From Candidatus Omnitrophota bacterium (lineage in GTDB: Bacteria; Omnitrophota; Gorgyraeia; Gygaellales; Profunditerraquicolaceae), in NCBI GenBank assembly GCA_026387555.1, contig JAPLLM010000003.1, positions 1,935 through 36,801 on the forward strand: a stretch of DNA of 34,867 bases. The letters are read 5' to 3'. Position numbers and translations under genes: made by a program. Every line of letters starts with the position of its first letter. Position 1 is the stretch's first letter. The notes beneath the pieces are model-generated. The model did no database searches, was not told where the DNA came from, and saw nothing but the letters and a program-made list of their open reading frames with translations. Shown piece by piece: positions 1-19,979 of this stretch.

Positions 1-3000
1 AATTTTCCATCCTTCAGCAGTAAGCCCCTCTACATTCAAACCCTGGCCGATGTATAAACTTACGCTTTGCGGGGTGCCTGCCTTTATTTTGTCATAGAAC
101 TGCCCGGATGCATTCTTGCGGATATACTGCGCCAGAAATTCTCCCCATGCACCTTCATTCTTACAAACTCTTAATCCTTCCCAGAATCCTTGCAAACCTT
201 TCTGTGATAGGGTCGTCACCACCATCCCCAACCCGATTGCTAATGTAAACACAGGCTCAAATCCCGGCAGTATCAAGAAGGCATGCGTGGAAGTAGAATT
301 GGGCTGTGCGGGAGCGGGTTGTACTTGAGTTGCTTTTTCGGCGGCTAGCCTGTCAGCGAACTGCTTGGCGCCATAAAAATCCCCATTCGCGCAACAGCAA
401 TATGCGGTATACGGGAGAATATTTAACTCGTTTTTGCTTACTTTGCCGGCAAATGCTTGGCGGATGGTAGTCGCAGCTACTTCAAAAGGCATCCCGATGA
501 TAAAATTGGCATCCAGGGTGGTCTCTATAGTCTCTCCCACTACTTCCCGTTCAAAGAATATCGCGGAAACCTTATGCAATACGTCACTGTAAGGAACTAT
601 CTTCTTTTCTTTGACCTCTACGCCCGTCTTTGGATCAAGATGGGAAACCTCATAAGAAATCTCTATGGAAACATTATCTTCTAATTTCTGGATAGTATCT
701 AGCTTAGGCGCTTCTCCTGCCTTTTTGACCACCTGGCCCTCATACTCCACCTGTCTGGCTACCCATGCCTCATATTCAGGCCTACCCCTTTCCATTGAGT
801 TTGGCGGCTGCAACTCATCAGGGAGAAATAAATCCGCTCCGTCTCTATCTTTAACTTTCAGGCGGGCCCAACGGTTGTAGTGGTCTCTTCCCACCATGTA
901 AAAGGCTTCGATCTTCTGGTGGCTATTCATATTCAAGATACGAAAGATATTTGTTTCACCATCCAACGGGGTACCTGAAGCAATGGGGCAATAAGCAAAG
1001 AGCGGGTCGAACATTTTCAATACCTTTTGAGCCATGATGTGGCGTGGATGATCTGCAAGCAAAGAACTGGCTTTTCTCGGGTCGCTGCCGGCGATGACAT
1101 AAATAATCTTATCCAGCTTGTATTCGGCAATAGCAGCCAGCCCGGCGATCAGATGCATCCAGGTAAAAGGATTAGCGGCAACAGGATAGACGCCTATTCT
1201 GAATGGCCTGGGGTTTATATCGCATACCTCGCCGCGGTGAAGAGCGGGCTTAATGTTTGGATTGATCAAGCCTAATTTTAAATGATCGGCTATCTGGGCC
1301 AAATAGCGTTCGCTAAAACTCTTGATGATTGCGAAATGGCCCTCATTATCTTTCATCCCTAACTCCAGGGCCATATTTTTCAATTCGTTCTCAATCTTCC
1401 GGCTGATGATATTCGTAATCGGATTGGATTGACTGGTGGAGAAAGTCGGCAGGGGCATGGGCCTGCCGGGATGGCCAAAACGCACCTTGCCTGCTAACTG
1501 CCTGGAGATTGCATTAAAACTTTCCTCCATCCCTCTTATTTTCTTGCTTAATACCCCGTACTCTTCGGTAAACATATACTTCAGGATCCTTCTTTTTAGG
1601 TTTACGATATTTTCTTTTTGCGGTATATGCCTAGTGCCTTCTTCTCCTCCTGCTGGCACGCGCACAAAGAAAACTTCTTTCAAACAGGTGATCTGGCCGA
1701 TAACCCTTATCAACCCTCCGGAGCCTGACCGGCTATCGATTAACCACGGAACCTTAGCCGCGATCTTATGGTTCATTTGCGCCTTAAGCCTTTCTATATC
1801 CGCTGTTGTATTCCTGGTATAGGCTTCATCCAACTGCCGGAGCTCATCCTCGGTGATCCCGAACATACCGGCTAAATCAGGAAGGTATATATGCTCATTT
1901 GCAGTATGGAAGAGCCTGAAATATTTACTAAAGGTCGCGAAATCGGTTTTTGCCAGCTTCTTGATCCCTTCACTCAAACAGGAGCGTTCTACGATCTGCT
2001 GGCGGCTCTCGTTTTTGGGCTGGCATCCTTCTTTGAGATTAACCAGGTAGCCGCCGATATCTTGAGGAGTGGTTACAGAGACTTCGCTCATTACTGTTTT
2101 ACCGGATAGATAAAACATTGCCATTAGCACCGGTTCAGGAAAAGCCACCAGATTATCTATATTGGAAGTCGCGTAGATATGTTTTTTAGTTTTAGCATGT
2201 AACAATCGATAAAGCTGACCGCTGGTGATAAGCGATTGAATAAGGCCAAAATGCCCGGCAGGAGTAAAGTCTGATTTTACTCCGCTTGCGTGTATGTGCG
2301 AAAAATCTTTCATCGAGAAACGGCGGTTCTTATCCGTCTGCAGATAAAACTCGGTTGCCGGATCCAAACCATAGTTCCCTTGACGGACGAAATCATCCCG
2401 TACTTCTCCATCAGTCGAAAAGCTGGTTAAGGTCAGAAAAGGAAAATCTATTCCGAACTTATCCCTGAAATATTGCACCACTCGGGCAGTGATTTCATTA
2501 AAGGAGCGCCCGCCGTAAACCGGGACTATTCCGGTACCCTTGGCAATATCTTCACTTCCCAATACCGCCCAGCGCGAACCAAGCCCGGCATTAGGCTTGG
2601 CGTACACATACATGGGAAATAGCGCCGCACCTAATTGGTATAACTGCATATATTCTGCAGTCAAAAGATGTTTATCGCCTGCCTGCCTAATATCCGTCTC
2701 CAGAGAATTGGCTATGACCATCAGCCTATTAACATTCTGTAGGCCGCATCTTTTGCAGATAGCATCGATCTCTTTCCGGTTTGCGATTAAATAATCGGTC
2801 AATTCTTTGAATCTTCCCGGAGAGACTTCGAAACTTACTGTTTCGCCGGCTTTTAGAGGCATTACAGGTACCTGCGGGGAAGGCCACACATCATTCAGGC
2901 TATGCACCTTTATCTGTGTTTCGGCAGAAAACGTGCCGATCCTCATCATCGCCTGAATCTTGAGCTGCTCTTCGCCGTTATCAACGGAAAATGCGGTATC

Positions 3001-6000
3001 CGGGCACTTGGATAATATAGCTCGCGCCTCTCTTATCTCCTTGTCATTGCCTTGCGCAAAAATATAACCTAACAAAGAGCGCGCGCTCCTCTTATTGAAC
3101 TCAACTACACACGCAGGAGCCTCTCGGCTAACGTTATCGAGCAGCTTTCTTGCCAGTAATAAATGTGTTTTTGAACTAAAGGCCTGCAGATGGGTGGGGT
3201 ATTTTTTGGTTTCCGGATTAGTCTGCGCTTTTCGGATATAGGTGGTTATTTCTTTTAAAATCCCACCGTCGGATTCCAGCGAAACGCGGCATTTCCTAAG
3301 AAGGTCGACTAATCTGAAAACCTTTTCTCCTATGCCAAAATATTCTCCAGCCGGAATCCTTTCTTCTTCTTCGAATAAATCAAGCTTGTGTTGCCTTGCT
3401 ATTGCCACATGCTGATACTGATGCCTAAGGCAATCTGCGATAATCGCAAACAATAACTCCCTGGCATCGCTAGGCAGCAACCTGTAAAGGTCAGCTAACA
3501 TCATTAAATCATCTAAATCCAAATAGCCCTGTAAACGCTTACGGCTTACTATGTGCAGATACATATCTCCGGGGAATCTGCCCGGCCTCAAACCGGAACA
3601 GACCACAATATCAAAGTCTCTCTCCTGTTCTATGGCCTTATTCTTTAAACGGTCAATAATAGAGGGTAACCAGGATTTCTTAGCAGGAGGAACAAAGGTC
3701 AATTCTTTCCCCAAATCCATCAGCTTGGTATAAAATTCCGACTTAAACTGGCCGGGGCTATTCTTTGCCACATACTGCTCAAATGGAAACATCGCCCGGT
3801 ATCCTTGTTCAGTAAGGATTTTGCGTCGGCCAAAGAGAGAATAGAGGCTTTCGTCATTGCTGGCCTTAGTCAAGCTGTTCCTAATGTCATCGCAAAAGAT
3901 TATATAATCCGCTGCGGAGATAGGTAAAAGAGGGGTAAGGTTAGGGCCGGTCTCCTTTTCCAGGGAACTCTTGAACTCGTCTTCTACTGTGATCCCGATT
4001 TCAGAATTATCCAAATATATGCGTGGATAGATAATGCTGAAGGCTGCCTTTAGCAATTCGGGGCGGGAACGCACATATTCCACTATCACCTGCCGCCGGT
4101 CTTCATCGCTCGGTTCATGGGCCGTAGCGTCTTGCTGCGCGCGGCGCAAGAACATAAGATGCAGAAACCCTTCAAAGACCACTATCTGCACGATTTCTTT
4201 GACAAATGCCGGTTCAAGATTAGTAATGCCGGAGCTAAAAACCAGCTTTTCTTCATTAACCATTGCTAACTTGTGAAGCTCATCGCTAAACTCGATTTCT
4301 ACTTCGCTGCCCAGGATAAAATTACTGAAATAACCCTGGAAGTTTCCCTTTAAATCCCTTACACCCTGCTCAAATGATCTTCTCAATACGGGATTAAACG
4401 GAAAATCATCCGGGAAAACCACCTTTATATCAGCGGCCTTGCCTGCTTCTATTTTTACCTTGTAAGCTTGGGCATCGAGCTTATTTTCATTCTTTAATCT
4501 GGTCAATGAGAACTCGGAATATTTAACAAGGGCTAAGCCTACTGCCAGCGGCAGGAGCATCAGCTCAAGGCCGGGTATAAACAGTGCAGCGAATGTAGAA
4601 GATTCCGCGCAGCCTACCTGCTGTTTAGCCCATATAAATTCTTCCGCTTTTATGGCGTCGGAAGAATCCACGGGCCGGGCCTCGATAAGAGTTTCCCTGA
4701 TTTTCGAGTCCCCTTCCACCAGAAGGCGGATCATCGCTGCCCTGAGGCCTGCTTTGTCCGCAACTCTTTCTCCATAAAATTCGTCGAACTTTTCAAATGT
4801 CGTGGCAAAAGACTGATATGGAATACGACGTAATGCCATGAGTCTTTCGGCATTATTACCGTTCTCCCATACATCGCAAAAGATTAATATATCCAGCATC
4901 AATCTAATTTCTTTTGCGGTTATGCCGGATGTCTTGGCTACGTGCTCAAACTCCGTGGGATCTTCAGGATAACAAAAATGGTTTGTAATCAGAAACTCTT
5001 CCGCTACAGCAAGTTTAATCCCGAAACGCTCGCGCAAAACCCGCACTCCGTTATATTCATGGCTATAGTGAGCATAATACCTTTCTATTTGATCAAGAGT
5101 AAGATGGTTGCCATCCTGCGCACAGATAGCAGCTAGCACCCTGGCCATGCTCATGTACCAAAGAGATTCATCAGTAAGAACCTGTGCGGCTAAATCCGGC
5201 CTCTTCTTAAGAAATACCTCTAATGCAACAAGCGACGCCTTCTTAGAGCCATTAGCCGGAAGACCATAATTCCTGGCAAGTTCCCTTTCTGCTTTAAAAG
5301 ACCCTCCCTCTGTCAGAGGTATATGTATACCGCCTATGTCATGCACTTTGGCTACACGAGTAACCATATCTATCAGCTCTTCTTTGAGTCTCATCTCTCT
5401 TCCTAACAAAGATACGTATTCTGAGACCCTACGGTTATGCGCCTTATTCAGGCCTTCAGGAAAAATCCTATCTAATTCGTCCATCTCAACTTCCCTTAAA
5501 GCCCTGCAGACAGTAGATGAAACTATCCCCACTGCCAGCATAATGGCTGAACTTATTGGATCAAACATCTGCCCTACAAGTAAGGCAGTCGTAAAGTCAA
5601 AAGCATGGGCAACCGGAGAGTGTGTTTTCCTAAAGTTGATGGTGTTGGAATAATGGAACCAATGCTCAATATTTTCTTCACCTAAAAGATATCTTTCAAA
5701 ATCCTGCTCATTAACATCAGCGTGTATAAAGATCCCGGTTACGGGTACTGGCTGCCTGGCTATCTTTATCTGTTCTACTTTTTCATCTAATAATCTTCTT
5801 AGGCGCGGATTGGACATGACAGCCCGGAAGATATTCTCCGTATTACAGCTGCCGTCCTTATCCTTATAGGGCGTTAAGGCGCTTAACCTGCCGCAGATAA
5901 GCGTTTCCTCTTGCGTAAGAGAAGAAAGCTTACCCTGGAGCCTTTGGATAACCTCGCGTGTAAGCGCCTTTCCGCTCATGCCGTCTTTTAATTCCATTAC

Positions 6001-9000
6001 TCCGAATGGTCCGATAGGATGAAGGACGCCGTCCATAATCGCCGTTATCGGTATCTCTAAGTTGACGGTTCTTTCATACTTTGTTTCTATTACCAGGTGT
6101 AACTCATTCCTTATTAGATAGTCGATAAAAGCGGCGTAACCACAGTCAGGGCATAAATAATAAAACTCTGTATGGTCTATCAAGGAATGCGCCCGGCGTT
6201 CAAAAAGCGGAAGTTCGCCGATATAGAAATACAACTGTTTTATCGGTTTCTTGTTTACCTTGTCATATATGAACTCCAGGAATACGCTATAGGCCCTGGC
6301 TGCCTGCTGGATCAAGCGGCAACGGGAAACATACGGGCTGAACCGGTGGCCGCGCGGCAGGAAGTCATCTACAAAATAATAGCTAAAAGGTTTCTGGCTT
6401 TGCATGTACTCTCCGAACGGCATCAACTGCCTGCCCACGAGCACAGCTAAATTATCGAAACTACCTATATCCGGCCGCCTATTCAAAACAAGATGCACCG
6501 CTTCTCTGAATAGCTCGGGATTTTCTTCAAGCGTCCTTAGGGTAGCCTGGATTTTATCGGCAGGGTGATAACGCAAAACCTCTTCCAGCGCTGCCGGAGG
6601 AGTATCTACTGTAGATGTGGCAGCCGTATCCAATTTGCCATAGAGCCAAGAGAGATTTTGATTCAAGGTAGCGACATCAATGCGCTCTTTGCGCCAGGCA
6701 GCAAAGTCAGCTCCAGTGGGAGCGGTTAATCCATCCTTAGAAATAATATGCTCGATTGGTTTCTTAAGTAAAGGCCGGGCATCCTGCGCCAGAGGCCAAG
6801 CAACCAGATACTGGGCACCGGACTTATCTACCAATAAGGTATTGGCAGAGGCTGATTGAATGCTATAGGCCAGTAAGGATTTACCGTCCTTCGGAATAAA
6901 CCCGTAGAGCATCGCCCAACAATTACCCTTTGCATCCGGACTTGGCTCAAGGACAAGGTCTTCACCGGCAAGTTTCAAATGCGACTCTTCCATATACCAG
7001 TTAGGAGAGCCTTCCAGGCCAAGAGCAGTAGCAGGAAGCCCCCTTCTATCTTCTATGGATCTGGAGAGGTACTCCCTTGCCTGTTCAGGGGTAATGCCCC
7101 AACCAATGATAAGTATAGTATTATCGGGAAGCTCAATGTTGACATTGGAAAGTTTTACTCTTCGGCCGATAAAAACGTGTGAGTTTTCCCCTGCCTTTAT
7201 GGCGACACGGTTAAGGAAAACATCATCGGTATTTTCGAGAATGACCTTGCTCGGCTGGAAGTTAGAAGCAATGATCCTCTCGTTTAAATCAGGAAGGCCA
7301 AAATATCTCCTGCCGCGGTGATGGGTGGCTACAAAGTCCGCAGTCAAGATGTATGACTTAGGATTACCTACGTCAAACCAGAAACCACCCCTTATCTCCT
7401 CCTTGGACTCCTTGGCCTCTTCGGCGATGTCTAAGTCTGCGACGTAGAAATTAAGGTTCTTATGTAAGGCCTGGACTATTTCCAAGAGCTGCAGACGGTC
7501 TTCTTCCTCGGTAATGGTATCCCAGCTTGCGGGTAAAAATACCTGTTGCTTGGTTACTATGGCATCTATTTCGCTCTTTTTACACTTTATCTGCTCGGCT
7601 AATGCTGCCTTACCTTCGGCACCTGCATGTAATGCTTCAGCTTTAAGGGCTTCTAACTCCTGTTTAAGTCTTTTATACTCCGGTAGGAAGGCATTTGCCT
7701 TTCTTATGCTATCGCAATCAATAAATGCAGCTTCGCCGAGAGTAGCAAACAAACCAAAGGGATATTTTTCACGCAGCTTCTTAGTATCATGCGTACTGGC
7801 GTTACTTGCGCAAGGGACATCAAGGACATCAAACAAGCGCTTTAACGCGCTATTCCTAAAAGCAATGAGGAAGGCGTTACGGATGACCTTTCCCTGTCCG
7901 GCCATTGCCAACTCCACAACTCTATTAAAATTTCCCTTTTCTTTAAACCCTGCAAGGCGCCCGGTTTGGGCATTACCGGCAATCAGGCCCAGGTCACAAA
8001 GAGCCTCTTTTTGAATCTTTCTCCTTAATAGTTCGTAGTTACTGTCTACGGTTGCGCCTCTTGCTGCAGCAAGATGGGCGGCAGTATTTACGAATTCATC
8101 GGCAAGGCTTGCGTCGATTGCATCCTTGCTCTTGCCTTCCCTTAATAAAGCTAACCGAATTGATTCAAGGCCTTTGGTTATACTGCTTAATTCTTCGGTG
8201 TTTTTCGGCATGGGTAAGACCGTACCTGCTCCAAAGAAGACAACATCTGCATCCTCGGGAAGTTCAGCTAATGGCCTACCGCCGTCCCAGGTTATGGCTC
8301 CCGGGCAAATGACATTATCGCTTCCGCCGATAAGAGTGAAACCCCTGCCCATTCTAGGCATCTGAGAGAGGATCAGCTGTTGGGAAAGATAGCTGATACC
8401 TAAGAATATTTCATTGAACATCCGGTAGAGGCCCTGATAAACGCGCTGGATAGTAAAGGCGAACATCCTAGTCTTTAGTCCACCATCGGCAAGAAAGTTA
8501 TGCGAGGTATCGGGAGAAGTAAAGCCGGGTGAGTTTATCTGGCTCTTAAAACCTTCGAGGATACCTACTAAATCATGGCCAAAATCTGCGGGATCTTCGG
8601 GAAGATAACAGCCATCAATGGTAACATTTTCAGAGATCCGGGCATAACAACCTAACGCCTCTCTTACGCGCGCCTTGTAATAAGCCTTTGCAGCTTCAGG
8701 TTGGCCCTCGGTTGGCCGGGTAACTACATACATATGGCGGTTAGCCCGGAAACACTCGGCATTTATGTCTTCGGACAATTCGTGGCTGTTCAGATAACGC
8801 ATCACCTCTCTAAGGATATTCTGTTCACGGGAATTCTTCGGGGTGACCGGTTGATTGTTCAAAACTAAGTTACGCATGTACACAAAGATCAACAGGTCAT
8901 CTTTAAAGCTGTGGATATGTTTCCTGGGAAGACTGCCTTCGCGCGGCTCAACGTGATGGCCTACGCGGATATCCTGATTTTCATGCTCCAGCACCGAGAT

Positions 9001-12000
9001 GATGCCGGGTTTGTGGAAAGGCGATGTGCGGGCAAACTCCAGTGAATTGATACCAAGATATATGCTGCCTTGAGGCACCTTATTTTTGGCGGTGCCTGCG
9101 TGGCTTAAAAGAAGCGCGTATTTAAAGTCGGCGCCGCTTCCTTCCTGCCGGTAACAAATAGTGGGCAGGGCTGCGGCAGTATTGTAGCCCTCTTCCAGTA
9201 TGATGACGAATCTGCGGCCCGCGGCCTGGTCATTGCCTATCTCCCGGACTAAATCCTGCAGATAGATGAATGATTCCTTAAGCCGCGTCCTGGCAGGAGG
9301 GGAGCGCAGGGTGCGCGCCAAGGCATCCCGCATTTCAAACTGTGCGTCAAATATACTCCTGAAGAACAGCTCTGCGGTTTGCTGTATCCTCCTGTCATCG
9401 GCATTGTCAGCAAAGAGAAGATTAAAATCGAGCCTACTTATATTGTTGACGGCGAAGAACCTACCTTCGGCAATGGCTTTTTGCAACGCGGGCTTAGTAT
9501 GCTGCTCATGGTCAATGGCCATGCCGCTTTGGAATTTAAGGTCTTTGACCTGCTCTGCTTGAGCCTGGCCACTGGCAGCCTCAAGAGTATCCTGTAGAGA
9601 CATAAAAGATACCCTGCTTCCAAGGATTGTTTTAAGTAACTCTTGCAGTTCCGGAGTTTTATCTGAAACCTGCTTGACCGGGTGGAAACGGACAGTACGG
9701 TCCATAGTAACAAATAACGCATCCAGCGCCGCGGTAATATCGCCTAAAAGGTAGCTGTCCGGCTGGTAAATTGTAGTAACGAGGAAGGTCTTGTTACCTG
9801 TCTCCTGGATCTTTAATTCTCTTCCCTCAAACCTCACGGTCCGCTCGACTAAATTATTCTCCTTAATATCCCGGCTGATTAGTTCGGCGGTAGAAAGCTG
9901 CTTCACTAAAACCTTATTCCAGCTGATATCTTCGGTGACTTCTTTCTTCGAAATATACGGACAATGAAGCTGGGATTTTATGCGGGCGATCCTGGCTACC
10001 ACTTCATTAACCGGGGTTTGTTCCATTCTGGTGAATACTTCCTGCCTGAATGCGGCATCTGTTTCATAGCGGCGCTGTTCTTCCGGGGTAATGTAATTGA
10101 AAAGTTTAAGTAATCCTGAAACGCGCAGGATATAAGTCGCGGTATTGAACTCCGGTATGGCATTCTGATTGAATGATTTGTCAAAACAGAACCCTTCAAC
10201 GAGTTGATTGCGGCCCCGCACCTCGCAGACTGTTCCACCTGTCTCGGGCTTGCAGGTAATAACATATTCATCAGTGACATCCGCTCCTGCCTGGCGGATC
10301 TTGATATGTTTAGCAAGTTTAAACTTAGGATCTTGCGCAAATGCCTCTGCTATCGTAAAGCTACCGGTTCCCTCCATGCCGGTAACCTCATCCGGAATGC
10401 AAACTTCAAGGCCAAGGTTAGGGCTTATCGTATTCTTGACGATTTTCCCCACTGAAATCGGCTGACCAGTTTTCCTCCTGATGATCGTCTTCCACACCTC
10501 CCCCACCTTCACACTGTCGGATTTTCTAACCACGCTGACCATGATGGCCTTATCCACAACTTCGACTAACACATCTTTTCCTGAACGGCGTAAGATCCCG
10601 ATAAGCCCCGGATCAATAGTTGCGCCCAGGTTATCGATATTTGAAACTGAAACGTAGAGCGTGCCGTCTTTGACCATCTGTCCAAGTTTACCTTCCAAAA
10701 CTAACCACGGTATAGCCTCAAAGTGTCCTCCGGGGCAGAAATCCTCTTCCCCGGTTACCAGCCTGAATATTTCTCCTTCTTTGGTCAGCCGTTTAGTGAT
10801 GCCTACCCGGTATGGCCGGATATCCAGGCCAAAGTTATTGCGCTCTTCCAAATACTCCATTACCCGGTCATGGGTAGAGTAACTATTGGCGATATACACC
10901 GGTATACGTTTCCCGATGGCGAAAATATGCCCGAGTTTCACATCGATAAAAGTACGCGCAGCATTAAGCCAGTTATCAATAATGACAAAAAGCGCTTTGA
11001 CTGTGCCGCCGAAACGGGAAGCAAGGCCGCCATTTAAAAGTAACGAAGCAAACGCGCCTCGCCTGCGTAAAATCTCTTCGCCGGCCTTCTTGTCTTCTTT
11101 GGTAATATCCGACCAGGAGGTAAGTTCATTGCTTATTGGCTGCTTGGCATCCGGCTCGTGGTTATTCTGCTCTACGTCCTGTTTCGTGACGGCGCGGCAT
11201 ACATAGGTCATTTGGATAGCGTCGAACTCTGCGGCATTACCCAACTCTTCAAACTTACGCTCTTCCAGCATATGCTGGTTCATCTGCTCTGACGTAGAAA
11301 GCTCTATCTTTTGGCTTTCGGCATCGTAACGATAGACAAAATGCATATGCTGTAAACGGAAATAGAAATAGGAAGATTCGCGATAATGAGCAGTAGCGTT
11401 AATATTTATGGTGGATATTGGGAGGTGCCAGACAAACGGAAACTCCGCGAACTCTCTTTCAATTCCGTCGCGTATGGTAGTGTTATTGTTCCCGTTTTCC
11501 TTGCGGCTGCGGATACGGCTGCTAATGGCGTGCGCCACATAGCGGAACTCTGCTTCTTCGGCGCGCTGATGATTCCTAAAAGCCGCTTCCCCTGCCTCGT
11601 GGACGAAGGTAGCGACGGATTCGAGCTCGCCTAATTCTTCAAGGACGTCCGGGGCAATGATTATCCATTCGCCGGCAGCGCTGGTAAAGAGAACGCCGGT
11701 GGAACGGTTGAAGATATTGCGGATTATCTGCGCACGGTGGTCTCTTGATTGTAAAAACTTGGCCGGCGGAGCGCGTATATGCTGTGTGTTACGCAACGCC
11801 TCAAGCCGGCGCGCGGCCTGATGCAAACCAATAGTATCCAGGCCTTCGATTGCCTTATCTATCCTTGCCCGGGCGCTGGTATTTGCCACATCGGTAAATA
11901 AGCGTAAGTCTAACCCTGCAAACGCTTGTTCTACTTCTTCTCTGGCCGGGGTCTCCTTGCTTAAACGGGTGCGGAAGCCGACGTGGAAAAGGCTCTCTAA

Positions 12001-15000
12001 CTCCAGAAGAGCAATTATCCGGGCCCAGAGCGCCTGTAACATTTTGTAATGCAGGGTCTCTCCTATTTCAGTAAATAAAGCGTAGGACCCGGTTGGATGA
12101 TCAAGCTCTTTTCCGTCTTGGTCCATCAGGACGACAAAGTTAGGATGAGAACTTACATAACCTCTACCTTTTAACCCTGGAACAGTTACCCTGATACTTG
12201 TCATTGCCCTATGAAAGCGGGCAATCGCTTTTGCGTATTCCAGCTCCGGACGGAAAGTGATGTTGATATTGCCAATTGAACAAGAATCTGTATCAGATTT
12301 TTTGTGTCCGGAACACAACGAATTTACGCTCTGCACAAACGGAATAGCCATTAGCTTCTCGGCAATCCCAAGCTGCCTTAGTGCCGGGTCAACTATTTTC
12401 GGAGAATAAGGAAGTCTCGGCCCTTTTGCCACTCTCTTTTCTAACAATTTAGGGTTAAAAAGCCATTCTGCCGGAATCTTGCTCAAATCGATTACTTTAA
12501 ATCCTTCCGCCACCATCCCCAGCGCAACCAACGCCACGCCCGCTGCCAGCTCCGGCGAAACCGCCGCAACTGCGCCCAGGCTAAGGCAAGAGAGAACTGC
12601 AGCGCCTTCTGGCTTATGCTCAGCCGTGGTGGCCTCGGCCAGCTGACGGAAATGCGCGGCATATTTAAGCCACCTTTCGGCCTTACTAGGATTTTTCCCG
12701 GCAAGCTTCTGAGCTCCCTGCTCTAATGTTTGTGCGTGTTTGATTATTACTTCCTTCGTTAATATAATACCGGTGAATTTTTCATTAAAATATTCCTCGC
12801 CATACACAGGAATAGTGGTCAATTTCAATTCCTGCATTTCAGCTAAATTTCTCTCAGGAGAAAGCTGATCGTCGCTACTGAATCTAACATCGAGATCGTA
12901 GTCTCCGTATTGGTAAATCCATTTAAGGCCATCTGCGTCCACTCTCGAACCGTAGAGATCTTCAGCGGAGTTCAAAATAATTACGAAATCTATGTCTGAA
13001 GCATTCTCAACGGTTAAGAAAGAACCTTTGAATAAAATAGCTTTAGGAGGAGGCACTCCGGAATACTTCAACCGCCTTAAAATATAACCCACGCATTTCG
13101 AAAGCACCTGCCGTCTCCCTGGAATCTCCTTAATGGCAGCCTGTATTTCCGGCCAAATAAATCCGAGATTAAACAATAGTTCCCTGGCATCCGTAGGCAT
13201 ATTTTTCAGCACATATGCATAGGCATCCTTATATTCGTTAGCAGCTTTCGCAGCCCTTAGCGGTAAAGCAAAAAACACGGAGATAAATTGATGTAAAGCC
13301 TTGCCGACTACCGCGCAGTCCTCCCTAAGATACTCCTCATCTGTTTCTGATAACTTTGAAAAGGCGCGTAAAAACTTTTCGTCCTGTAATAAAATATTGT
13401 ATATGCGTTCCGATAAAGCCTGATAAATATTAGGTTTAGCCTGTGAAGAAAGCTTTGTCACGTCATGCAGTATTTCATGGCAGACGACTTCTGTTGAGGC
13501 ATCGCTCGCTACAAGGACAAGCCTATCAATTTTCTGATCAAACTGACGGGATAGGCGCGCTAAGAAATCTCCCGTGCCTGCGTTCATAGTACTAAATATA
13601 TACGTACCGGGGCTACTTAAAAGATTAAGCAATGGAGCGTCTGAATCGTATTCAGATGCGACACATTGCACATAAAAGTTCCTGACAGATTTTCTGGAAT
13701 CATCAACAATAATCCGCAGGCCCGGCCGGACAAACCCATCCCTAACTATCCATCTTGTTAATTCCAACTCCCGGTCATGATCTTCCTCCGCGCTGTTTAA
13801 AGCCACCATCCCCAGCGCCAGACACCCGAGGCCAAGCAGCGGGTCGGCGCTAAACAAGATCGGCGCGGCGCATAGGGTGACGGGCGAGCCGGAAACAGAG
13901 GAAGACAAAACTCTCGGCAAAGACCTTTTGCCTTTGCAGATAAGGGAAATATCGGTTATGCCTATCGAGGCAAAATATTCTATTAGCTTAGGCGACTCTT
14001 GTATCCTATCGCAAACTTTCCTGCATGCCATTAAAGGCCAAGAAGTACTATTAAGACCTCTCTCCATGGCGATTTCTTTAAACCCAAACCCTCTTAATCT
14101 TTGGCTGAAAATCTCAAGCGGGATTTCTCCTACTCCATTATTCTGCTTTACCAGGTTGACAAGCATCTTAACTACTTCTTCGGTTAATGGCTGTGTAGAT
14201 GCCTCTCCCTGTTTCCATCTGGAATAAGCCACCGCATCTTCAAATTCACCATCCGCTCTGCTCAATTCATCCCTATCTCCGTCAACACTAGAAAGCATCT
14301 GCTTAGTCTCTTTCTCCATGCGACGCTCTTTAACATAGGAACGAATAACAGCAAAACGAAGATATTTGTACCAGTAGCTCCGGAATGGCCTTATTCCGTC
14401 ATAATTGCGAAGCGAGCTATCTACTTCCTTTTCAATCTTAGCCAAAAGCAGTTGGTGTAAAAGACAGGTGGGCTCATTGAACCAATAATAATGCCTTCTA
14501 ATTCTCGGGTCATTAGTAATGGCGAACACCCTGCGTAAAGCTAATCCCAATAATATGACACGGCTGGCACTATTCCCCTGCTTAGCATCTTTGGCTAACT
14601 CCGTTAGAGTTTCAGAACCAATTTTAGCCCTATTGATACCGTCAATGAAACTGTCCAAACGAGCAGGTAGAATTTCCGCATTTGGATAGTCGCGAAGAAT
14701 ACATTTTGTCGCATCCCAATCTTCGTACTGCTTAGTTATTTTTATCCTATCCCGGATCCCCAAATGCTTTTTTAAAGCCAATACTGCATCTGCTTCGCTT
14801 TTACATAAGAACTGGTTACTGGCCCAATTAATCAGGCTATAAAGCGTACGGCCGTTAAATTCCGGTATCGGGTTATCAAAATGCATCAATCTTAGGCATT
14901 CCCGGGAATCCGGAAAATTCTTAAAGATGAACCCGATCATAAAAAGCTTAGCCTGCTTAGTCGCTACTCCCCAAGGGAATTTTGCAATATTAGGATTATT

Positions 15001-18000
15001 GTATAAATCTAAAACATTGTTTTCGTTAATTATAACCCGCGGCATCTTTATTTTAAGATAACGGAGCAGCTCTTTAATAACAACCTGCACCGGTGCATGA
15101 TGGTACCTTTTTACTGCCCAGGTATACAGGCCGCTGAAACCGTGGCCATTCAATTCTTGCCATTTGCATACATTAAAATGTGTTTGATTTAAACCAAAGA
15201 AAGCCGGGCCGAATTTATCCCTACAATGGCTGATAAGCCACCGGACCGCCTCGGCCTTTCCAAGCCGGGTAGTCATGCCCCACGGGAAACGCTCCGACTC
15301 TTTCAAGAGACTGATAACCTGCGACGCCCCTATCTCTCTTATCGGCTGCGTACTGGTGGAGCTTTTTATTATTCTCCCCAGTACGCATGTGCCAGCAACC
15401 AGCGCATCCGCTACCGGCTCGCCAGTAAAGACTGATAAACTTGAGAGTGCTGCAGCATTATTTACGGCCGCAACTCCTCCAAACAACTTCTCTTTTAATA
15501 TAGGGAGTGCCGCGCCCACCATTGCTATCGTTTTCATGGCCCCTATCTCTTCATCGGCTTGATTCAGAAGTCTGCCAAAGTTTCTAGGGTTATGTTCATA
15601 GAGGAGTTCCGCAGATAATTCCTGCGCCCTCATATATGTTTTTACCGCATTGATATTTCTTTCCTGCAGCTCCCCGGTTTTTCTTTCCAACTCTTTCAGA
15701 TTCAAGATAAAATTAGCCACGCTTCCCTTTGCCCATTCCGCAGCCAGAGGAACTCCCTTAAAGACTGTCGAACATGGATGCACATCAATCGAAGACATTC
15801 TTCTTGCCGATTCCAACGTTGCCAATCTCGCCGCCTGCTGATCCTTTACTGCAAATTGCTCTTTGACCGCCGCAAAAGCCGTAGGTATGCAGGTATCTGC
15901 CATAAATACCAGCGGCATGCCGTGTATCTTCATCGAAGCAAATAATCTGATTTTCTGCCACCCGATTTGCAGCATACCAAACACGGTAATCGCAAACAAC
16001 AACACATCAGGGACCCCAAAAACAGCCATCCCCATCACCGCATTGTTGGGCTTAGCGTCATCCTGCTGCATCCTCGCCCACCTATACAATGCCAGACGCA
16101 CATAGAGGGCCCTGAACAAAGAGTTGCTATATTTATTTACATTAATCCCGCTTTTGAAGTGATACAGCTGTTCATCAACATCATCGCAGGTAAAAAGAGA
16201 ATCTTTAGGTAGATAATCTAGCTTATTAATGACGAGGGTTCCTACAACTTCTCCCGTTGCTACTGCTTGTTTATCAAATTCAAGCTCACTGGCGATTACA
16301 TCTTCGGGCTTTGCCTTGATTCCTATCCTGCCTAACCGATCTATAATCTCCGGTCGCTTAAAAAACTCCTGGAAAGGTTGCCTGAACCCGCGGCCTACGG
16401 TCACTAACTTTATCCCGTCAACGCCGAGCACTCGCCTGATAAGCTGTAACGTTTTAAGATCATTATCGTTTAATTCCCAGGAATCCGCCAAGGCCCTGCA
16501 GTGCTCCGGTTTCAGCAACCCTCTGAAAAGTCGATAAAACTCTCTATATGCTTCCCCATCGCGCTGGGCCTTGATCTTTTCCCTTCCCATTTTAATCTTC
16601 CCTAAGAACGCAGCCTCATCGAACCCTTTGGCTGGAGGGTTGCTGCAAATCACCCTGTCCATCTGTAATGCCTGTCTGGCATAAGGACGAGTGACTGTTT
16701 CTTCGAAATCGGTATAAACGGTTAAAATCCTCGCTCTCTCCCCCGTCTTCTCGATAAAACGCGAATTACTTACAGCCCAACGTAGTGCATGCATGTAGCA
16801 TAATAACGCCCATACCGCCATTAACCCGACAGCGGAGAACGCAATAATCAGCTCCCCAGTCAGGCATAGCGCAAACGTAGTATTCGGCCTAGCTTCATTC
16901 GTTGTCCTGGTCGCCACCGCCGCGCCAGCCTGGGCCTGCAGGATTACTTCTTCGTTGCAAGCAGGAAATTCGGCGTGGAGGTTTTCGTGTTCGTAGATAA
17001 AGCTGATTACTTCTTTGGCTTGTGCGGCAGAGAAATGGTGGGAGAGTAGGATTTCTTTTACTTTTCGCTCATCTAAGTTGCTTCCTTCTCTTAGTCGATC
17101 AGCAAAGACAATTTCTTGAGTCTTAAGGTCATAGTAGGCGATACGGCTGGGAGGCCCGAGTATCCTGCCGGATTTGGCAAAATACTCTTGCAGGTATTTC
17201 TCTAAATAGGATAAGCCTGCTGCCACACGGAAAAACCGTCCTTTTGCTTCCGGAGCCATGACGCGCTCATACTCACGGATAAAACGGTATACATCGTCCG
17301 AACTTATATTGCGGCGAGTGGGTTCACTGGAAGCGGATTTTTCCTGAGTTCCCTGGCCCTTGCCAGGCTCATCTGCGGCAGGTGTCGCCGCCGCCGACAC
17401 AAACAACGCCTTATTATCTGGCTCATTCGTTATCCTAGCTGTAAACGCGCCCCCATGTCCTATAGTTCTTCCATCTGATGAATTATAAACTCTAGTTCCT
17501 ATAATGTTTTGAGTGGCAGGCCGCCTTGCGATAATATCAAATAAATCATGATGCCTAGTTGCTTTAAACATGGCATCGATAAGTCTAATATTTGTTTCGG
17601 CAGACTGACAATGTAACCGACATAATGGAATAACATTGCGATAAAATTTAGACTGTCTTAAGGCTAGCCATTCAGGACTATCGTTTATGACATTGCCAAA
17701 ATGCGGACCATTCATAATGGCGAATATACAACATGGATAGATATTCCCTTCCGAAGTAATAAACGGCATAAGTAAACTATAAGGACAGGAGTGAACTTCC
17801 CCTGCTGGCTGGGTTCTGTAATCATGCAATAATACCTGGTAATTGGTATGCTGCTCAAGGAATCCAGGCATCTCTTTTTGTAAGTCGTTTATTTGGACAA
17901 AAAGCATATCCCTCTGTTTATCACTAATTGCGACATCATCAAATTCATTTTTATGATCAAGCTCAATACCTGGCCAACAGGTTGGATAATTTCTTACCGG

Positions 18001-19419
18001 CCTAAATTGAATTGTCAATTGTTCTAGCTTTTCGGCAGGTACTCGCTCTCGCAGTTCATCTAGGATATTCTTTACTCGCCGAATAAATAAAGCAGTTTCG
18101 TGAATATTCTTTTGACCAAATACATATGCCACATGAACACTCGGAATTGGACCCAATAGATAATAACGCAAGTTCGCAAACACATAGTCTAAGTGCTGGC
18201 TACCTTTTAATGCGTAAAATGTCTCAACAGTGGCAGCATCTACAGAAAGACGAATCCAATTAATTGTCTTCTGCCAACTTCCTCCCGGGATCACCAGCCC
18301 ATTAGTGAAAAGTTTCAACTTTACAGAAGGCATGAGTTTTCGCAACCTCCAAACTAAATCATTAAAACGGTGAGAACCATCGCGGTAGATTGTTGGTTCA
18401 CCGCCACCAATCAAATCAATTGTTCGCGGTGATAAAGCTGCGAGACGGGGTAAGGCAGTAAAAGGAAAGTTGGAATGCTTATGTTGATATGGACAGTAAG
18501 AACAGGCTAAGTTACAATTATAGGTTGGACAAAAAGATAATTGGCTGAATCGGTTCCAAACAACAGGTTCGGTAGATAATAACTTAGCTCTAATCAATGG
18601 CAAGTGCCCTAAGAGGTAATTCGAGTTGCGTTCATGCTGAATAGCCGGCACTGCTTGGTCTGGATTTATTACAGCTTGCAATGCGCATGTGCTAACCCGA
18701 AATGCTGCAATACTATCGATTTCTTGAATTAAATTTGCCAATTCTTCTTTTGCTTGCTTCGAATCCAGAATTGTTTTCTCAAAAAGATGACTAAACGTTG
18801 TACCTTCCAACCCATCAACAGGCAAATCCAAATTATCCTTAACATTTAGATTCAAAGGAACAAATGCCAATTTCTTCTGGTTATTCTTGAGGAAAAGGGT
18901 TATTTGGAATGTATTATTCCTGAACTTTATACCTTGATTACTGATGATTTGATATGCGAATCCTCCTTTACCGTCACCATCTAAATGACCATAAATGCGG
19001 CTATTAGATATTAGGTTTCCATCTGGAATAGAAACAATACTACCTGGCTCAGCAACGATATCTAAAATCGTATTATCGATAATAACGTCATCGCCCAATA
19101 CCAACTCCACTCCTTCAGGCACCCGTATTATCGAGTGGTGAATCAAATATTGACTTTTTGCTTTAACTCGTCCTCGTATATCTGAAGCTATACATGCTTG
19201 GTCAGCAATGCCAAAAATATGGCGTAGCCGGCTAGACAAAAACCTTAACTGCGCATCTTGTTGTGGCAATAAATTTCGATAGAAATCATAGATATCTTTT
19301 GGTGAATTGAAGTGTGTAACAGGAGCGGCTGTTGTGATAAGCTGTGGGGCGACTTGTTGGCGAAATTCCTGTGAGATCTCCCACGTACGCTGCCACTTTT
19401 CTAACGAAGAATCCCTGCA
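1..19419 (-). CDS. Giant ORF C (>=6,423 codons in window, 3' end outside window; not in the supplied ORF track): membrane-tethered multi-enzyme protein
   Basis: The phase with codon first bases at coordinates divisible by 3 corresponds to + strand triplets read from each 60-nt line start. I codon-checked about 90 of the 324 lines explicitly: 1-1260 contiguous plus lines spread over 2101-19440. A continuous read-through translation of the rest met no tta/cta/tca in phase below the TAG at 19420-19422. None of the four minus-strand track ORFs in 1..19477 lies in this phase, as expected if the phase has no stop, since the track lists only stop-bounded ORFs. The translation is protein-like throughout, with many enzyme motifs. 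The first standard start in phase is TTG at 19269 and has no SD. The window ends mid-codon-string (...GQGLNVEGLTAEGWKI at 1-60). Confidence 0.85.
208..300 (-). repeat. Junction element copy 13 (ORF C)
   Basis: NSTSTHAFLILPGFEPVFTLAIGLGMVVTTL, translated from 181-300. The LGMV codons (caccaccatcccca, 217-230) resemble those of copies 9 and 10. Confidence 0.6.
360..1230 (-). other. NadD-like (cytidylyltransferase-fold) nucleotidyl/adenylyltransferase module with an insertion
   Basis: FRIGVYPVAANPFTWMHLIAGLAAIAEYKLDKIIYVIAGSDPRKASSLLADHPRHIMAQKV (1021-1210; cf. NadD iG.fGG.F.P.H.GH...a..a.....d.v..vp...pP.K...a....R..M). ETNIFRILN...IEAFYMVGRDHYNRW follows. After about 130 aa comes IIGMPFEVAATTIRQAFAGK...ILPYTAYCCCANGDFYG (370-500; cf. 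iSST.IR..l..g....lp..V..YI...glY). Confidence 0.5.
1650..2700 (-). other. UDPGP-family uridylyltransferase-like module 2 (more divergent)
   Basis: YVYAKPNAGLGSRWAVLGSEDIAKGTGIVP (2521-2640), DFPFLTLTSFSTDGEV, VKSDFTPAGHFGLIQSLITS (2221-2280) and KKHIYATSNIDNLVAFPEPVLMAMF (2101-2190). The motif order and spacing match module 1. Confidence 0.55.
4519..4602 (-). repeat. Junction element copy 12 (ORF C)
   Basis: SSTFAALFIPGLELMLLPLAVGLALVKY, translated from 4501-4620. Confidence 0.5.
4800..5520 (-). other. HD-superfamily phosphohydrolase module, HD-GYP-like but with degenerate GYP region
   Basis: NKAHNRRVSEYVSLLGREMRLKEELIDMVTRVAKVHDIGGIHIPLTEGGSFKAERE (5281-5460; HD codons at 5338-5343; cf. 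H..RV..y...la...AA.LHDIGKI.IP). Later comes ITNHFCYPEDPTEF (4921-4980), where HD-GYP proteins have HHE..DG.GYP, and LIFCDVWENGNNAERLMALRRIPY. Confidence 0.5.
5518..5637 (-). repeat. Junction element copy 11 (ORF C)
   Basis: NFRKTHSPVAHAFDFTTALLVGQMFDPISSAIMLAVGIV, translated from 5521-5640. Confidence 0.5.
7090..8420 (-). other. Second NTP-transferase-like module with coiled-coil insertion and C-terminal beta-helix
   Basis: GGFWFDVGNPKSYILTADFVATH (7321-7380 verified; cf. G.W.DvGt...Y). Then FQPSKVILENTDDVFLNRVAIKAGENSHVFIGRRVKLSNVNIELPDNTILI (7100-7260), which is beta-helix-like. A heptad-rich stretch EYKRLKQELEALKAEALHAGAEGKAALAEQIK lies upstream (about 7600-7700). The N-terminal limit is uncertain. 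Confidence 0.4.
10000..11130 (-). other. UDPGP-family (eukaryotic-type UTP-glucose-1-phosphate uridylyltransferase-like) module 1
   Basis: LLNGGLASRFGGTVKALFVIIDNWLNAARTFIDVKLGHIFAIGKRIPVYIANSYSTHDRV (10861-11040), FCPGGHFEAIPWLVLEGKLG (10681-10740) and QMVKDGTLYVSVSNIDNLGATIDPGLIGIL (10600-10680). Compare the UGPase motifs LNGGLGTSMG, PPGHGD and FVSNIDNLGATVD (from memory). Confidence 0.7.
12502..12606 (-). repeat. Junction element copy 10 (ORF C)
   Basis: GAAVLSCLSLGAVAAVSPELAAGVALVALGMVAEG, translated from 12481-12660. Confidence 0.6.
12700..13090 (-). other. Pol-beta-superfamily (minimal) nucleotidyltransferase module
   Basis: LRRLKYSGVPPPKAILFKGSFLTVENASDIDFVIILNSAE translated from 12961-13080. 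This is the hG[GS]-x9-13-D-h-D-h signature (GS...SDID). Confidence 0.55.
13200..13740 (-). other. Module containing an HExxH motif (HEILH); zinc-metallopeptidase-like?
   Basis: ...DRLVLVASDASTEVVCHEILHDVTKLSSQ translated from 13441-13500. HEILH = 13465-13479. No third ligand recognised. Confidence 0.25.
13795..13890 (-). repeat. Junction element copy 9 (ORF C)
   Basis: GSPVTLCAAPILFSADPLLGLGCLALGMVALN, translated from 13741-13920. The 17-nt string gccaccatccccagcgc (13802-13818) is identical to 12509-12525. Confidence 0.6.
13975..14520 (-). other. Sigma-70 region 2 / region 4-like (ECF-like) helix-turn-helix segment embedded in ORF C
   Basis: Translated codon by codon from 13981-14520. The r2-like segment is RRHYYWFNEPTCLLHQLLLAKIEKEVDSSLRNYDGIRPFRSYWYKYLRFAVIRSYVKERR (cf. 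ECF r2 ..f....F..Wl..Ia.N...d..R). The r4-like segment is LTEEVVKMLVNLVKQNNGVGEIPLEIFSQRLRGFGFKEIAMERGLNSTSWPLMACRKVCDRIQE (cf. r4 LP...r.vf.L....G.s..EIA...g.s..tVk.rl.RA...L). Confidence 0.35.
15961..16062 (-). repeat. Junction element copy 8 (ORF C)
   Basis: DDAKPNNAVMGMAVFGVPDVLLFAITVFGMLQIG, translated from 15961-16080. The NAVMGM codons share a 15-nt identity with copy 4. Confidence 0.7.
16792..16929 (-). repeat. Junction element copy 7 (ORF C), full form
   Basis: AGAAVATRTTNEARPNTTFALCLTGELIIAFSAVGLMAVWALLCYM, translated from 16741-16940. Confidence 0.7.
16945..17330 (-). other. Small (~130 aa) module ending in an HExxH motif (HENLH)
   Basis: ...LLSHHFSAAQAKEVISFIYEHENLHAEFPACNEE translated from 16921-17040. 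HENLH = 16975-16989. It sits between two junction elements. Confidence 0.25.
17362..17454 (-). repeat. Junction element copy 6 (ORF C), N-terminal half only; the hydrophobic hairpin is replaced by an Ala/Pro/Gly linker
   Basis: GGAFTARITNEPDNKALFVSAAATPAADEPG, translated from 17341-17460. Confidence 0.5.
17560..18560 (-). other. Radical SAM module with SPASM/twitch-like Cys-rich C-terminal extension
   Basis: LSFCPTYNCNLACSYCPYQH translated from 18481-18540. The CX3CX2C cysteines lie at 18514-18516, 18502-18504 and 18493-18495. IDLIGGGEPTIY (18361-18420). Distal segment: HSCPYSLLMPFITSEGNIYPCCIFAIMNGPHFGNVINDSPEWLALRQSKFYRNVIPLCRLHCQ (17581-17800). Confidence 0.75.
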
Positions 19420-19979
19420 CTAACTGAAACTCCTCCTTGTCGTCCAACGTTCCAGTTATGGACATTGCCAGTTTCACTTAGGATTTGGCCCAACCGAGTA
19501 CCGATTACATTTAAGGTCTCTGTTTTTGCAGCATAAAAACCACTTAAAGGCGGATCACGTTGCCTTTCCTGTTGTTCCATACCCAATACAACCAGCTTAT
19601 TATTACCTTCTATTTGCTGCTGCAGAAGCGGTATATCATCAGGCGTAAGCCAGCAAGCCGCATCTGCCGGTAACCAAACGAACCAATGACCACTTGGTAG
19701 AACTCGAGAGAAAATCTCTGCTTGACGAGTAGTAATTTCTGTTAAACGTTTACCCAATACAACAATATCTCCTTTGGTTTCAGACGCTAATCCAAGGAGC
19801 CCCTGACGTAAAGCCCTACCCCCGGTACTTGAACAAAGCAAAATATGATGATCTTGAGAAACTATATTAGCCTGAGCGAAATGATCTTTTACTTCTCTAA
19901 GAGTAACTATACTTTCTTTGCGGTCTTCTACTGCTGCCATCACAGAATTAACAGCCTTATCGCCAGGCCCTGGTGAAAT
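18960..19979 (-). other. NTP-transferase (sugar-1-P nucleotidyltransferase / fucokinase-N-like) module plus beta-helix, split across the ORF B / ORF C boundary
   Basis: ORF B C-terminus: HILLCSSTGGRALRQ (cf. GG.G.RL), HWFVWLPADAACWLTPDDIP, KLVVLGMEQ...PLSGFYAAKTETL. ORF C N-terminus: VTHFNSPKDIYDFYRNLL (19269-19322; cf. f.H.GT..EYL / W.D.G....Y), then IHHSIIRVPEGVELVLGDDVIIDNTILDIVAEPGSIVSIPDGNLISNSRIYG (about 18985-19145, left-handed beta-helix-like). Confidence 0.4.

Follow-up and report, generated by a model that had tools for sequence, protein, structure and literature searches.

A 19.4-kb open phase lacking a protein record is probably the downstream part of a frame-broken giant gene of Omnitrophota

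The DNA considered here, referred to below as the window, is a stretch of 34,867 nucleotides (nt) from the end of a 41,122-bp contig of a Candidatus Omnitrophica metagenome-assembled genome (MAG). Three tandem giant open phases, all on the minus strand and called A, B and C from left to right, together occupy the whole window (Table 1). Two of them contain open reading frames (ORFs) that are on record, i.e. ORF B, which is identical to NCBI MCX5710362.1 ('MAG: DUF4922 domain-containing protein [Candidatus Omnitrophica bacterium]'), and ORF C, which is identical to MCX5710363.1 ('hypothetical protein NT060_00085, partial', 1,604 aa). For phase A, a protein database search with queries covering its residues 3-6473 returned no identical (100%) record. 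Here we describe evidence that A is the continuation of B beyond a one-base frame break. If this break is repaired or bypassed, B and A would very likely constitute one gene of at least 10,026 codons.

In a program-made list of the ORFs of the window, nothing in the left 19.4 kb is longer than 166 aa (7514..8014, plus strand), as had been pointed out in an earlier reading of the letters (hereafter the sequence-only reading). The same reading claimed that the minus strand of this region holds an unlisted ORF of at least 6,400 codons. Indeed, the reverse complement of 1..19419 reads as 6,473 codons with zero stops, and no in-phase TAA, TAG or TGA exists between 19419 and 1. Over the same positions, the two other minus frames contain 410 and 507 stops and the three plus frames 261, 199 and 433. 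If stops occurred as densely as in the two other minus frames (7.1% per codon), 6,473 codons without a stop would be expected with a probability of about 1e-206, and the longest open stretch found in 50 shuffles of the window measures 230 codons. Phase A is absent from the ORF list because its stop falls outside the window: the ORF tool skips ORFs that run off the source, and it lists B and C, not A; this is the cause that had been proposed. The four listed minus-strand ORFs below 19,477 had been said to lie out of phase, and their tops (9722, 10340, 12704 and 19477; 2, 2, 2 and 1 mod 3) do differ from A (0 mod 3).

The further claim that this DNA is neither non-coding nor recoded is in line with a phase that is open and protein-like throughout and shows Pfam and homolog matches. 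Coding support that is independent of the phase itself comes from Pfam UDPGP matches, from PDB matches to UDP-glucose pyrophosphorylases and from homology to other Omnitrophota giants. Four of the five motifs quoted in the sequence-only reading occur literally in A, namely CNLACSYC (residue 302), GGGEP (338), NIDNLGA (2927) and VHDIGG (4692). The fifth, quoted as GS..SDID, does not occur in this form; A instead contains GS followed by nine residues and SDID (GSFLTVENASDID, residue 2132). An alternative genetic code was considered as well and rejected: a normal stop closes every open phase, and the stops concerned are isolated ones.

Although long and intact, A is not a self-contained gene. Its phase opens at 19419 immediately after a TAG, and no ATG, GTG or TTG is present before codon 50, the first being TTG 19269, ahead of which no Shine-Dalgarno sequence is found. 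Homology to other proteins begins at codon 2-3 already (for P0002, the homolog found first, the alignment begins at codon 3), which is 47 codons ahead of the first possible start codon, and the stretch before that start includes the family-invariant W192 and the conserved W196. We conclude that position 19419 is not a gene start and that A continues ORF B after a one-base frame break. That A has no start codon of its own, as a result of the frame break, is probably also the reason why it has no public protein record.

An alternative view would be that A is an independent, intact giant gene which starts at TTG 19269 or later, B and A being separate and translationally unlinked. ORF B does have its own in-frame stop (TAG 19403-19401) and is annotated by NCBI as complete. 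Moreover, in a homologous locus, L001 (ENA ERZ1758449 NODE_291, coverage 4.9x; four called genes, g1-g4), the syntenic boundary is called as two genes, the second of which (g3) has an ATG start. An independent A would nevertheless have to leave untranslated a stretch that is homologous to other proteins and contains two conserved tryptophans, and it would have to start at a TTG without Shine-Dalgarno sequence and without a protein record. In addition, at least 15 homologs, and likewise all structural relatives that have been solved, carry on a single chain the two halves of a domain that is split by the B/A boundary. We therefore regard two unlinked genes as improbable.

This domain, which spans about 435 aa, is split across the B/A boundary and contiguous in homologs, and for this reason B and A are considered pieces of one gene. 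Its N-half is carried by the last ~175 aa of B and its C-half by the first ~230 aa of A. Using A residues 1-275 as query, an exhaustive HMMER search yielded 24 relatives. In four stand-alone proteins (P0007, P0008, P0009 and P0013; 419-466 aa) A alone matches the C-terminal half only. The same four proteins align end to end, in one high-scoring segment pair, over the fused B/A junction (E 3e-56 to 3e-41), and the C-terminal ~175 aa of B are matched by their N-halves on their own (E 1e-21 to 1e-17). An internal copy in P0006 (2,137 aa) aligns with the B/A fusion at E 1e-70. The 435-position hidden Markov model (HMM) of the family gives a single match to the fusion (positions 7-421, 300.8 bits, E 2e-92); with the parts taken separately, the same HMM matches B at positions 7-160 (113.8 bits) and A at positions 195-421 (188.1 bits), the score of the fusion being the sum of the two. 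Besides the fusion, at least 15 other proteins hold both halves in the same order on a single chain. All ten family-invariant residues are retained, four of them contributed by B and six by A.

The AlphaFold2 model of the fusion, based on a 13-sequence alignment, shows one compact unit with a predicted local distance difference test score (pLDDT) of 83.3 and a predicted template modelling score (pTM) of 0.83. Its sole weak internal stretch, residues 169-185, is located at the frame break. Modelled from a single sequence, the junction gave no usable AlphaFold structure (pLDDT 36.8). Foldseek searches with the fusion model returned full-length matches to GMPPA/B, FKP, VTC1, ST0452, GlmU and AGPase (probability 0.9-1.0). 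The TM-scores are low overall (0.2-0.4), the best TMq being 0.41 to FKP (GDP-fucose pyrophosphorylase), and the matched pyrophosphorylases with Rossmann and beta-helix domains are all single chains. Judged from this model, the split domain is a sugar-1-phosphate nucleotidylyltransferase-like fold. The two-domain fold holds for the fused sequence only, its halves being in different frames as assembled. Like GMPPA/B, VTC1, FKP, GlmU and AGPase, the domain is predicted to combine a Rossmann-like N-domain with a subsequent left-handed beta-helix, and it carries G-x-G-x-R...K near the N-terminus. It differs from these enzymes in showing only 7-14% identity to them and no significant Pfam, NCBIfam or PDB sequence match. 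Hereby, neither Pfam nor PDB sequence searches gave a match for the fused B/A junction, and the stand-alone members of the family show no significant match to Pfam or NCBIfam, with only a faint hit to PF07959 in P0008 (E 0.17).

The family of the split domain appears to represent an undescribed FKP/GMPP-like branch of nucleotidylyltransferase-like proteins, which occurs mostly inside giant proteins. Its members are stand-alone proteins of ~430 aa as well as copies embedded, sometimes twice, in giants (P0006, P0010-P0017, P0019 and others). The family consensus includes N.G.G.RQGLL.L..GSKGDI..LG, QW.vASG and VVID.S...IP.GTVI, and some homologs carry insertions of up to ~280 aa in the linker between the two sub-domains.

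It is this linker in which the reading frame is lost. Phase A sits in the -1 frame relative to B, and the break must fall within 19419-19404, because the open phases of B and A overlap there only. The overlap contains a GGG run at 19415-19413. One G added to this run results in ...VSVSAG-DSSLEKWQRTW..., which keeps the frame and agrees with the consensus ASG..D..E.W..W of the family. Accordingly worded, our proposal is that a -1 frame break within 19419-19404 separates B from A and that this break would not be a designed feature.

A designed feature would be conceivable in the form of programmed -1 ribosomal frameshifting or other recoding, which would produce a short B and a long B+A at a set ratio, with AAGGAGGAG as a dnaX-like stimulator. 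The B/A break does resemble dnaX-type sites in that a -1 frame change within a gene is combined with a Shine-Dalgarno-like element upstream. Here, AAGGAGGAG precedes the GGG run by 16 nt, and the rare AGGAGG is found only seven times on the minus (coding) strand of the 34.9-kb window. Furthermore, the 6,473 downstream codons are intact with all invariant residues retained, and L001 likewise shows interruptions within conserved modules and yet has a 32.8-kb frame with two stops only. Unlike dnaX-type sites, however, the B/A break contains no slippery heptamer of the type X_XXY_YYZ, neither in the B frame between 19600 and 19396 nor, on direct reading, in the overlap. There is also no stimulatory downstream RNA structure of the hairpin or pseudoknot kind: 19425-19320 has a minimum free energy of -21 kcal/mol vs a shuffle mean of -24.2 (z = +1.04). 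Re-pairing from GGG to AGG is poor in -1 slippage, and the optimal spacing for dnaX-type stimulation is 10-14 nt, so that a spacing of 16 nt falls outside the optimum. The site is not conserved in relatives either, since the lesion of L001 is found elsewhere in the domain and is of a different kind (TGA), and other giant homologs are uninterrupted. No A-phase start codon follows AAGGAGGAG. Taking both sides into account, programmed recoding at the B/A break seems quite unlikely to us.

The break could alternatively be old. In this case it would reflect either a fixed gene fission, with the enzyme consisting of two non-covalently associated chains, or an inactivation that left A as an untranslated pseudogene remnant. 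A split at this position would be structurally tolerable, as the break lies in a variable linker that accommodates the long insertions of the homologs; the local sequence is degenerate and of low pLDDT, and L001 is broken in the same domain. An untranslated remnant of 19.4 kb would, on the other hand, accrue stops at ~7% per codon, and none is present; the 6,473 stop-free downstream codons thus make an old inactivation unlikely. Fission is at odds with the lack of a start codon from which a C-half including the invariant tryptophans could be translated, and the overlap of the two open phases by just 16 nt is what is expected of a fresh single-base lesion. An old fission or inactivation therefore has little probability in our judgement.

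The interruptions of L001 bear on both of these alternatives. The frame of this locus is open from 1652 to 34441 (32.8 kb) with two stops only, and by its sequence the run of g1-g4 looks like one giant gene with lesions. The g2/g3 boundary, syntenic to B/A, is a lone in-frame TGA (locus 9914-9916) inside the same 435-aa domain, ~100 residues earlier. At the g1/g2 boundary the frame changes (~1650-1727) inside a conserved module of which P0002 has two intact copies. Between g3 and g4 stands a single in-frame TAG (24836-24838), for which Pfam and BLAST gave no support for a split conserved domain. The giant homolog loci L002 and L005 show ordinary intergenic gaps, and tight junctions are thus not systematic. 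Sporadic lesions in very large targets, in part due to low-coverage assembly, explain the interruptions best. There is only a slim chance that the interruptions are genuine and tolerated or even used, i.e. that some Omnitrophota giants are expressed via recoding (by a -1 shift at B/A, and in L001 by read-through of the TGA and a change of frame) or by deliberate fission. If this were true, one locus would give rise to shorter and longer products, the nucleotidylyltransferase-like domain would be complete only in the fused form and AAGGAGGAG would be part of the signal.

Altogether, we assign a probability of roughly 0.8 to the reading that B and A are one giant multi-enzyme gene, split by a one-base lesion that is not designed. 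Several observations weigh against it. The area just upstream of the break is unusual: a conserved 'WW.LIRP..L' block is missing, and an 8-residue insertion (GRQGGVSV), unique to this protein, contains the rare AAGGAGGAG. These local oddities could hint at something non-random. Since the 'WW.LIRP' block is not encoded in any other frame near the break, its absence is a real deletion and not the trace of a second indel. L001 has a TGA in the same 435-aa domain and, in another conserved module, a change of frame; that one domain of 435 aa in ~10,000 codons should be hit by two independent lesions is a modest coincidence (~4%). Searches of genomes and metagenome contigs retrieved no reads and no independent assembly or close relative of the A start. 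Finally, the functional reading given below is drawn from domain content, with ~85% of A being dark to Pfam and PDB sequence searches and belonging to no recognisable family.

Because no reads or second assembly were found, an indel of the assembly is indistinguishable at this site from a real deletion of very recent date. We infer that a one-base assembly or sequencing indel is marginally favoured over a very recent, possibly segregating, one-base deletion.

Table 1. Open phases, ORFs, junction elements and modules of the window.
Feature	Window position	Strand	Residues	Remarks
Open phase A	19419-1	minus		6,473 codons, no stop; exits left window edge
Open phase B	30077-19404	minus		3,558 codons
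Open phase C	34866-30055	minus		1,604 codons
ORF B	19401..30071	minus		3,556 aa from TTG 30071; stop TAG 19403-19401
ORF C	30052..34866	minus		1,604 codons, open to right window edge; stop TAG 30054-30052
Overlap of B and A open phases	19404..19419	minus		16 nt (TGCAGGGATTCTTCGT)
Shine-Dalgarno-like string AAGGAGGAG	19430..19438	minus		16 nt upstream of GGG run
Junction peptide expected of fused B+A product				...GGVSVSAGDSSLEK...; B-terminal sequence: ...SAGILR
Conserved nucleotidylyltransferase-like domain (Rossmann-like half and beta-helix half)	18721..19934	minus		~435 aa; HMM, alignment, fold model
N-half of split domain	19934-19464	minus	B 3382-3538	
C-half of split domain	19416-18721	minus	A 2-233	
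DUF4922			B 665-754	Pfam
Methyltransferase			B 973-1133	Pfam
Radical SAM			B 1628-1788	Pfam
~390-aa module, tandem duplicate	20817-23150	minus	B 2310-2702 and 2731-3087	
Radical SAM / SPASM-like module	17635..18528	minus	A 298-595	weak Pfam; CNLACSYC 302, GGGEP 338
UDPGP (UTP-glucose-1-phosphate uridylyltransferase-like) module 1	10546..11184	minus	A 2746-2958	Pfam E 2e-20
Conserved region without Pfam match	5902..8016	minus	A 3802-4506	42% identity to P0031, E 1e-144
HD-domain-like region	4651..5445	minus	A 4659-4923	VHDIGG at 4692; aligns to three repeated HD regions of P0005
UDPGP module 2	1861..2535	minus	A ~5629-5853	Pfam E 3e-14

At the other end of B, the situation differs from that at the B/A boundary. 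The stop of C overlaps the annotated TTG start of B by 20 nt (junction 30052-30077), the frame changes by +1 on passing from C to B, and the B phase opens just two codons upstream of TTG 30071. This start has GAGG 5 nt upstream. No homolog spans the C/B junction, and Pfam and PDB sequence searches with the fused C/B junction gave nothing useful. In view of the missing spanning homolog and of the GAGG ahead of the B start, C and B are not joined into one gene here, and the junction is treated as a probable boundary. ORF C contains ~15 hydrophobic segments and has no Pfam match. The record of C is marked as partial and is exactly as long as the C open phase, from which we infer that the right window edge is the contig end. 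This in turn leaves ~6.2 kb more contig beyond window position 1, which could add up to ~2,085 codons to A. The GC content of third positions is 0.475 in A, 0.397 in B and 0.445 in C. GC content is continuous across the B/A junction and rises at ~17 kb, inside A and not at the junction, a pattern that suggests a mosaic composition within the giant gene.

Under the reading that B and A are one gene, the minus strand of 1-19419 would be the downstream two-thirds (at least 6,473 codons) of a giant gene whose upstream part is ORF B (3,556 aa). The full product would be a chain of at least 10,026 residues, in which long stretches that resist annotation, together with a few transmembrane helices, connect separate enzyme modules. 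The modules would comprise two radical SAM modules, a methyltransferase, DUF4922, the FKP/GMPP-like nucleotidylyltransferase, two UDP-glucose-pyrophosphorylase-like modules and an HD-like module. Both UDPGP modules of A are also matched by UDP-glucose pyrophosphorylases of the PDB. The second of them lies in a larger block (A 5192-6004) with 33% identity to P0032 (E 2e-103), and the conserved region at A 3802-4506 finds its counterpart in the giant Omnitrophica protein P0031 (partial). Some of the dark sequence of A is still conserved in other Omnitrophica giants (42% and 33% identity). The radical SAM / SPASM-like module of A (residues 298-595) also aligns with the radical SAM region of P0005. 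In B, the duplicated ~390-aa module is common to five other giant proteins, and no segment is shared more widely with other Omnitrophota giants (P0002-P0005, up to 33% identity); a Pfam scan of the module returned no family.

A crude predictor, the Kyte-Doolittle scan, finds five hydrophobic (transmembrane-like) segments in A, four in B and 15 in C. The nine segments of A and B make up ~1.7% of ~10,026 residues. Internal protein repeats at E < 1e-5 were not detected within or between A, B and C. Going by this content of domains and segments, we suggest that B+A may be an assembly line, tethered to the membrane, for nucleotide-sugar and glycan-related chemistry. As a side observation, GSFLTVENASDIDF is found at A residues 2132-2146 (window 12982-13026). 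It resembles the G[GS]-x9-13-D-x-D signature of nucleotidyltransferases of the Pol-beta type; no Pfam match backs this reading.

Giant genes have been described as a hallmark of the Omnitrophota (bioRxiv 10.1101/2023.11.21.568195), and an Omnitrophota origin of the present locus is evident from B and C, which are Candidatus Omnitrophica/Omnitrophota MAG proteins, and from the best homologs, which are Omnitrophica proteins as well. One class of such giants, the 'multi-enzyme metabolic clusters' (class 1), is characterised by many different Pfams, ~2% transmembrane residues and mostly unique sequence; among its modules are radical SAM, methyltransferase and sugar-metabolism ones, and the ORFs of this class are truncated at the boundaries of MAG contigs (10.64898/2026.06.07.730766). 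B+A comprises two radical SAM domains, SPASM (weak), a methyltransferase, DUF4922, two UDPGP domains, an HD-like domain, the nucleotidylyltransferase with its beta-helix and the duplicated module without family. It thus shares with the multi-enzyme giants (10.64898/2026.06.07.730766) the phylum, scattered enzyme Pfams of which none is dominant by copy number, the radical SAM, methyltransferase, HD and sugar-metabolism content, the mostly unique sequence without obvious signal peptide, and sparse transmembrane segments (~1.7% compared to ~2%). It differs from them in that more than 10,000 aa are reached only with the B/A frame break repaired or bypassed, A alone providing at least 6,473 codons and being truncated by the window, and in that its module set (FKP-like nucleotidylyltransferase, two UDPGP, DUF4922) and its sequence have patchy relatives only. 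With these qualifications, the B+A gene fits the multi-enzyme class of Omnitrophota giants.

The Archaeovorin / Dockerin-type giants of ultra-small Omnitrophota, which have many transmembrane regions (West-Roberts et al. 2023, 10.1101/2023.11.21.568195), resemble B+A in being giant Omnitrophota genes that are mostly unannotatable without structure prediction. In contrast to this type, the content of B+A is biosynthetic and related to nucleotide sugars, not adhesive or degradative. Pfam scans of A, B and C found no dockerin, SecA DEAD-helicase or carbohydrate-degrading domains, and with no dockerin or SecA domain found, the Dockerin/Archaeovorin type was rejected for B+A. Frame-broken giants are mentioned neither in 10.1101/2023.11.21.568195 nor in 10.64898/2026.06.07.730766.

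A related discrepancy between gene and annotation is seen for the homolog P0004, which is encoded at two loci, L003 (1-29722; GCA_035352955.1 DAOPYQ010000005.1) and L004 (1-29722; GCA_035403665.1 DAONFQ010000020.1). This protein is annotated with 6,573 aa and a start at locus position 10001. Its phase is open from locus position 2 and comprises at least 9,906 codons. The annotated start is thus internal, and the ORF exceeds its annotation by at least 3,333 codons; the 10 kb ahead of that start contain no recorded gene. P0004 is therewith a second example of a giant ORF that is longer than annotated.

The importance of the present finding lies mainly in annotation. A seemingly empty stretch of 19.4 kb, for which the databases searched hold no protein record, would make up two-thirds of a gene for more than 10,000 residues, and a single-base frame error would be enough to hide such a giant. 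By their size, giant genes offer rare assembly errors and mutations a large target, so that surveys that count called proteins only will under-count or fragment them. What is added here is that A continues B across a one-base break, a probable reason for the missing record of A and an apparently undescribed FKP/GMPP-like family. For the Omnitrophota, the B+A gene would be one more mostly unannotatable multi-enzyme giant, of a kind already described for the phylum.

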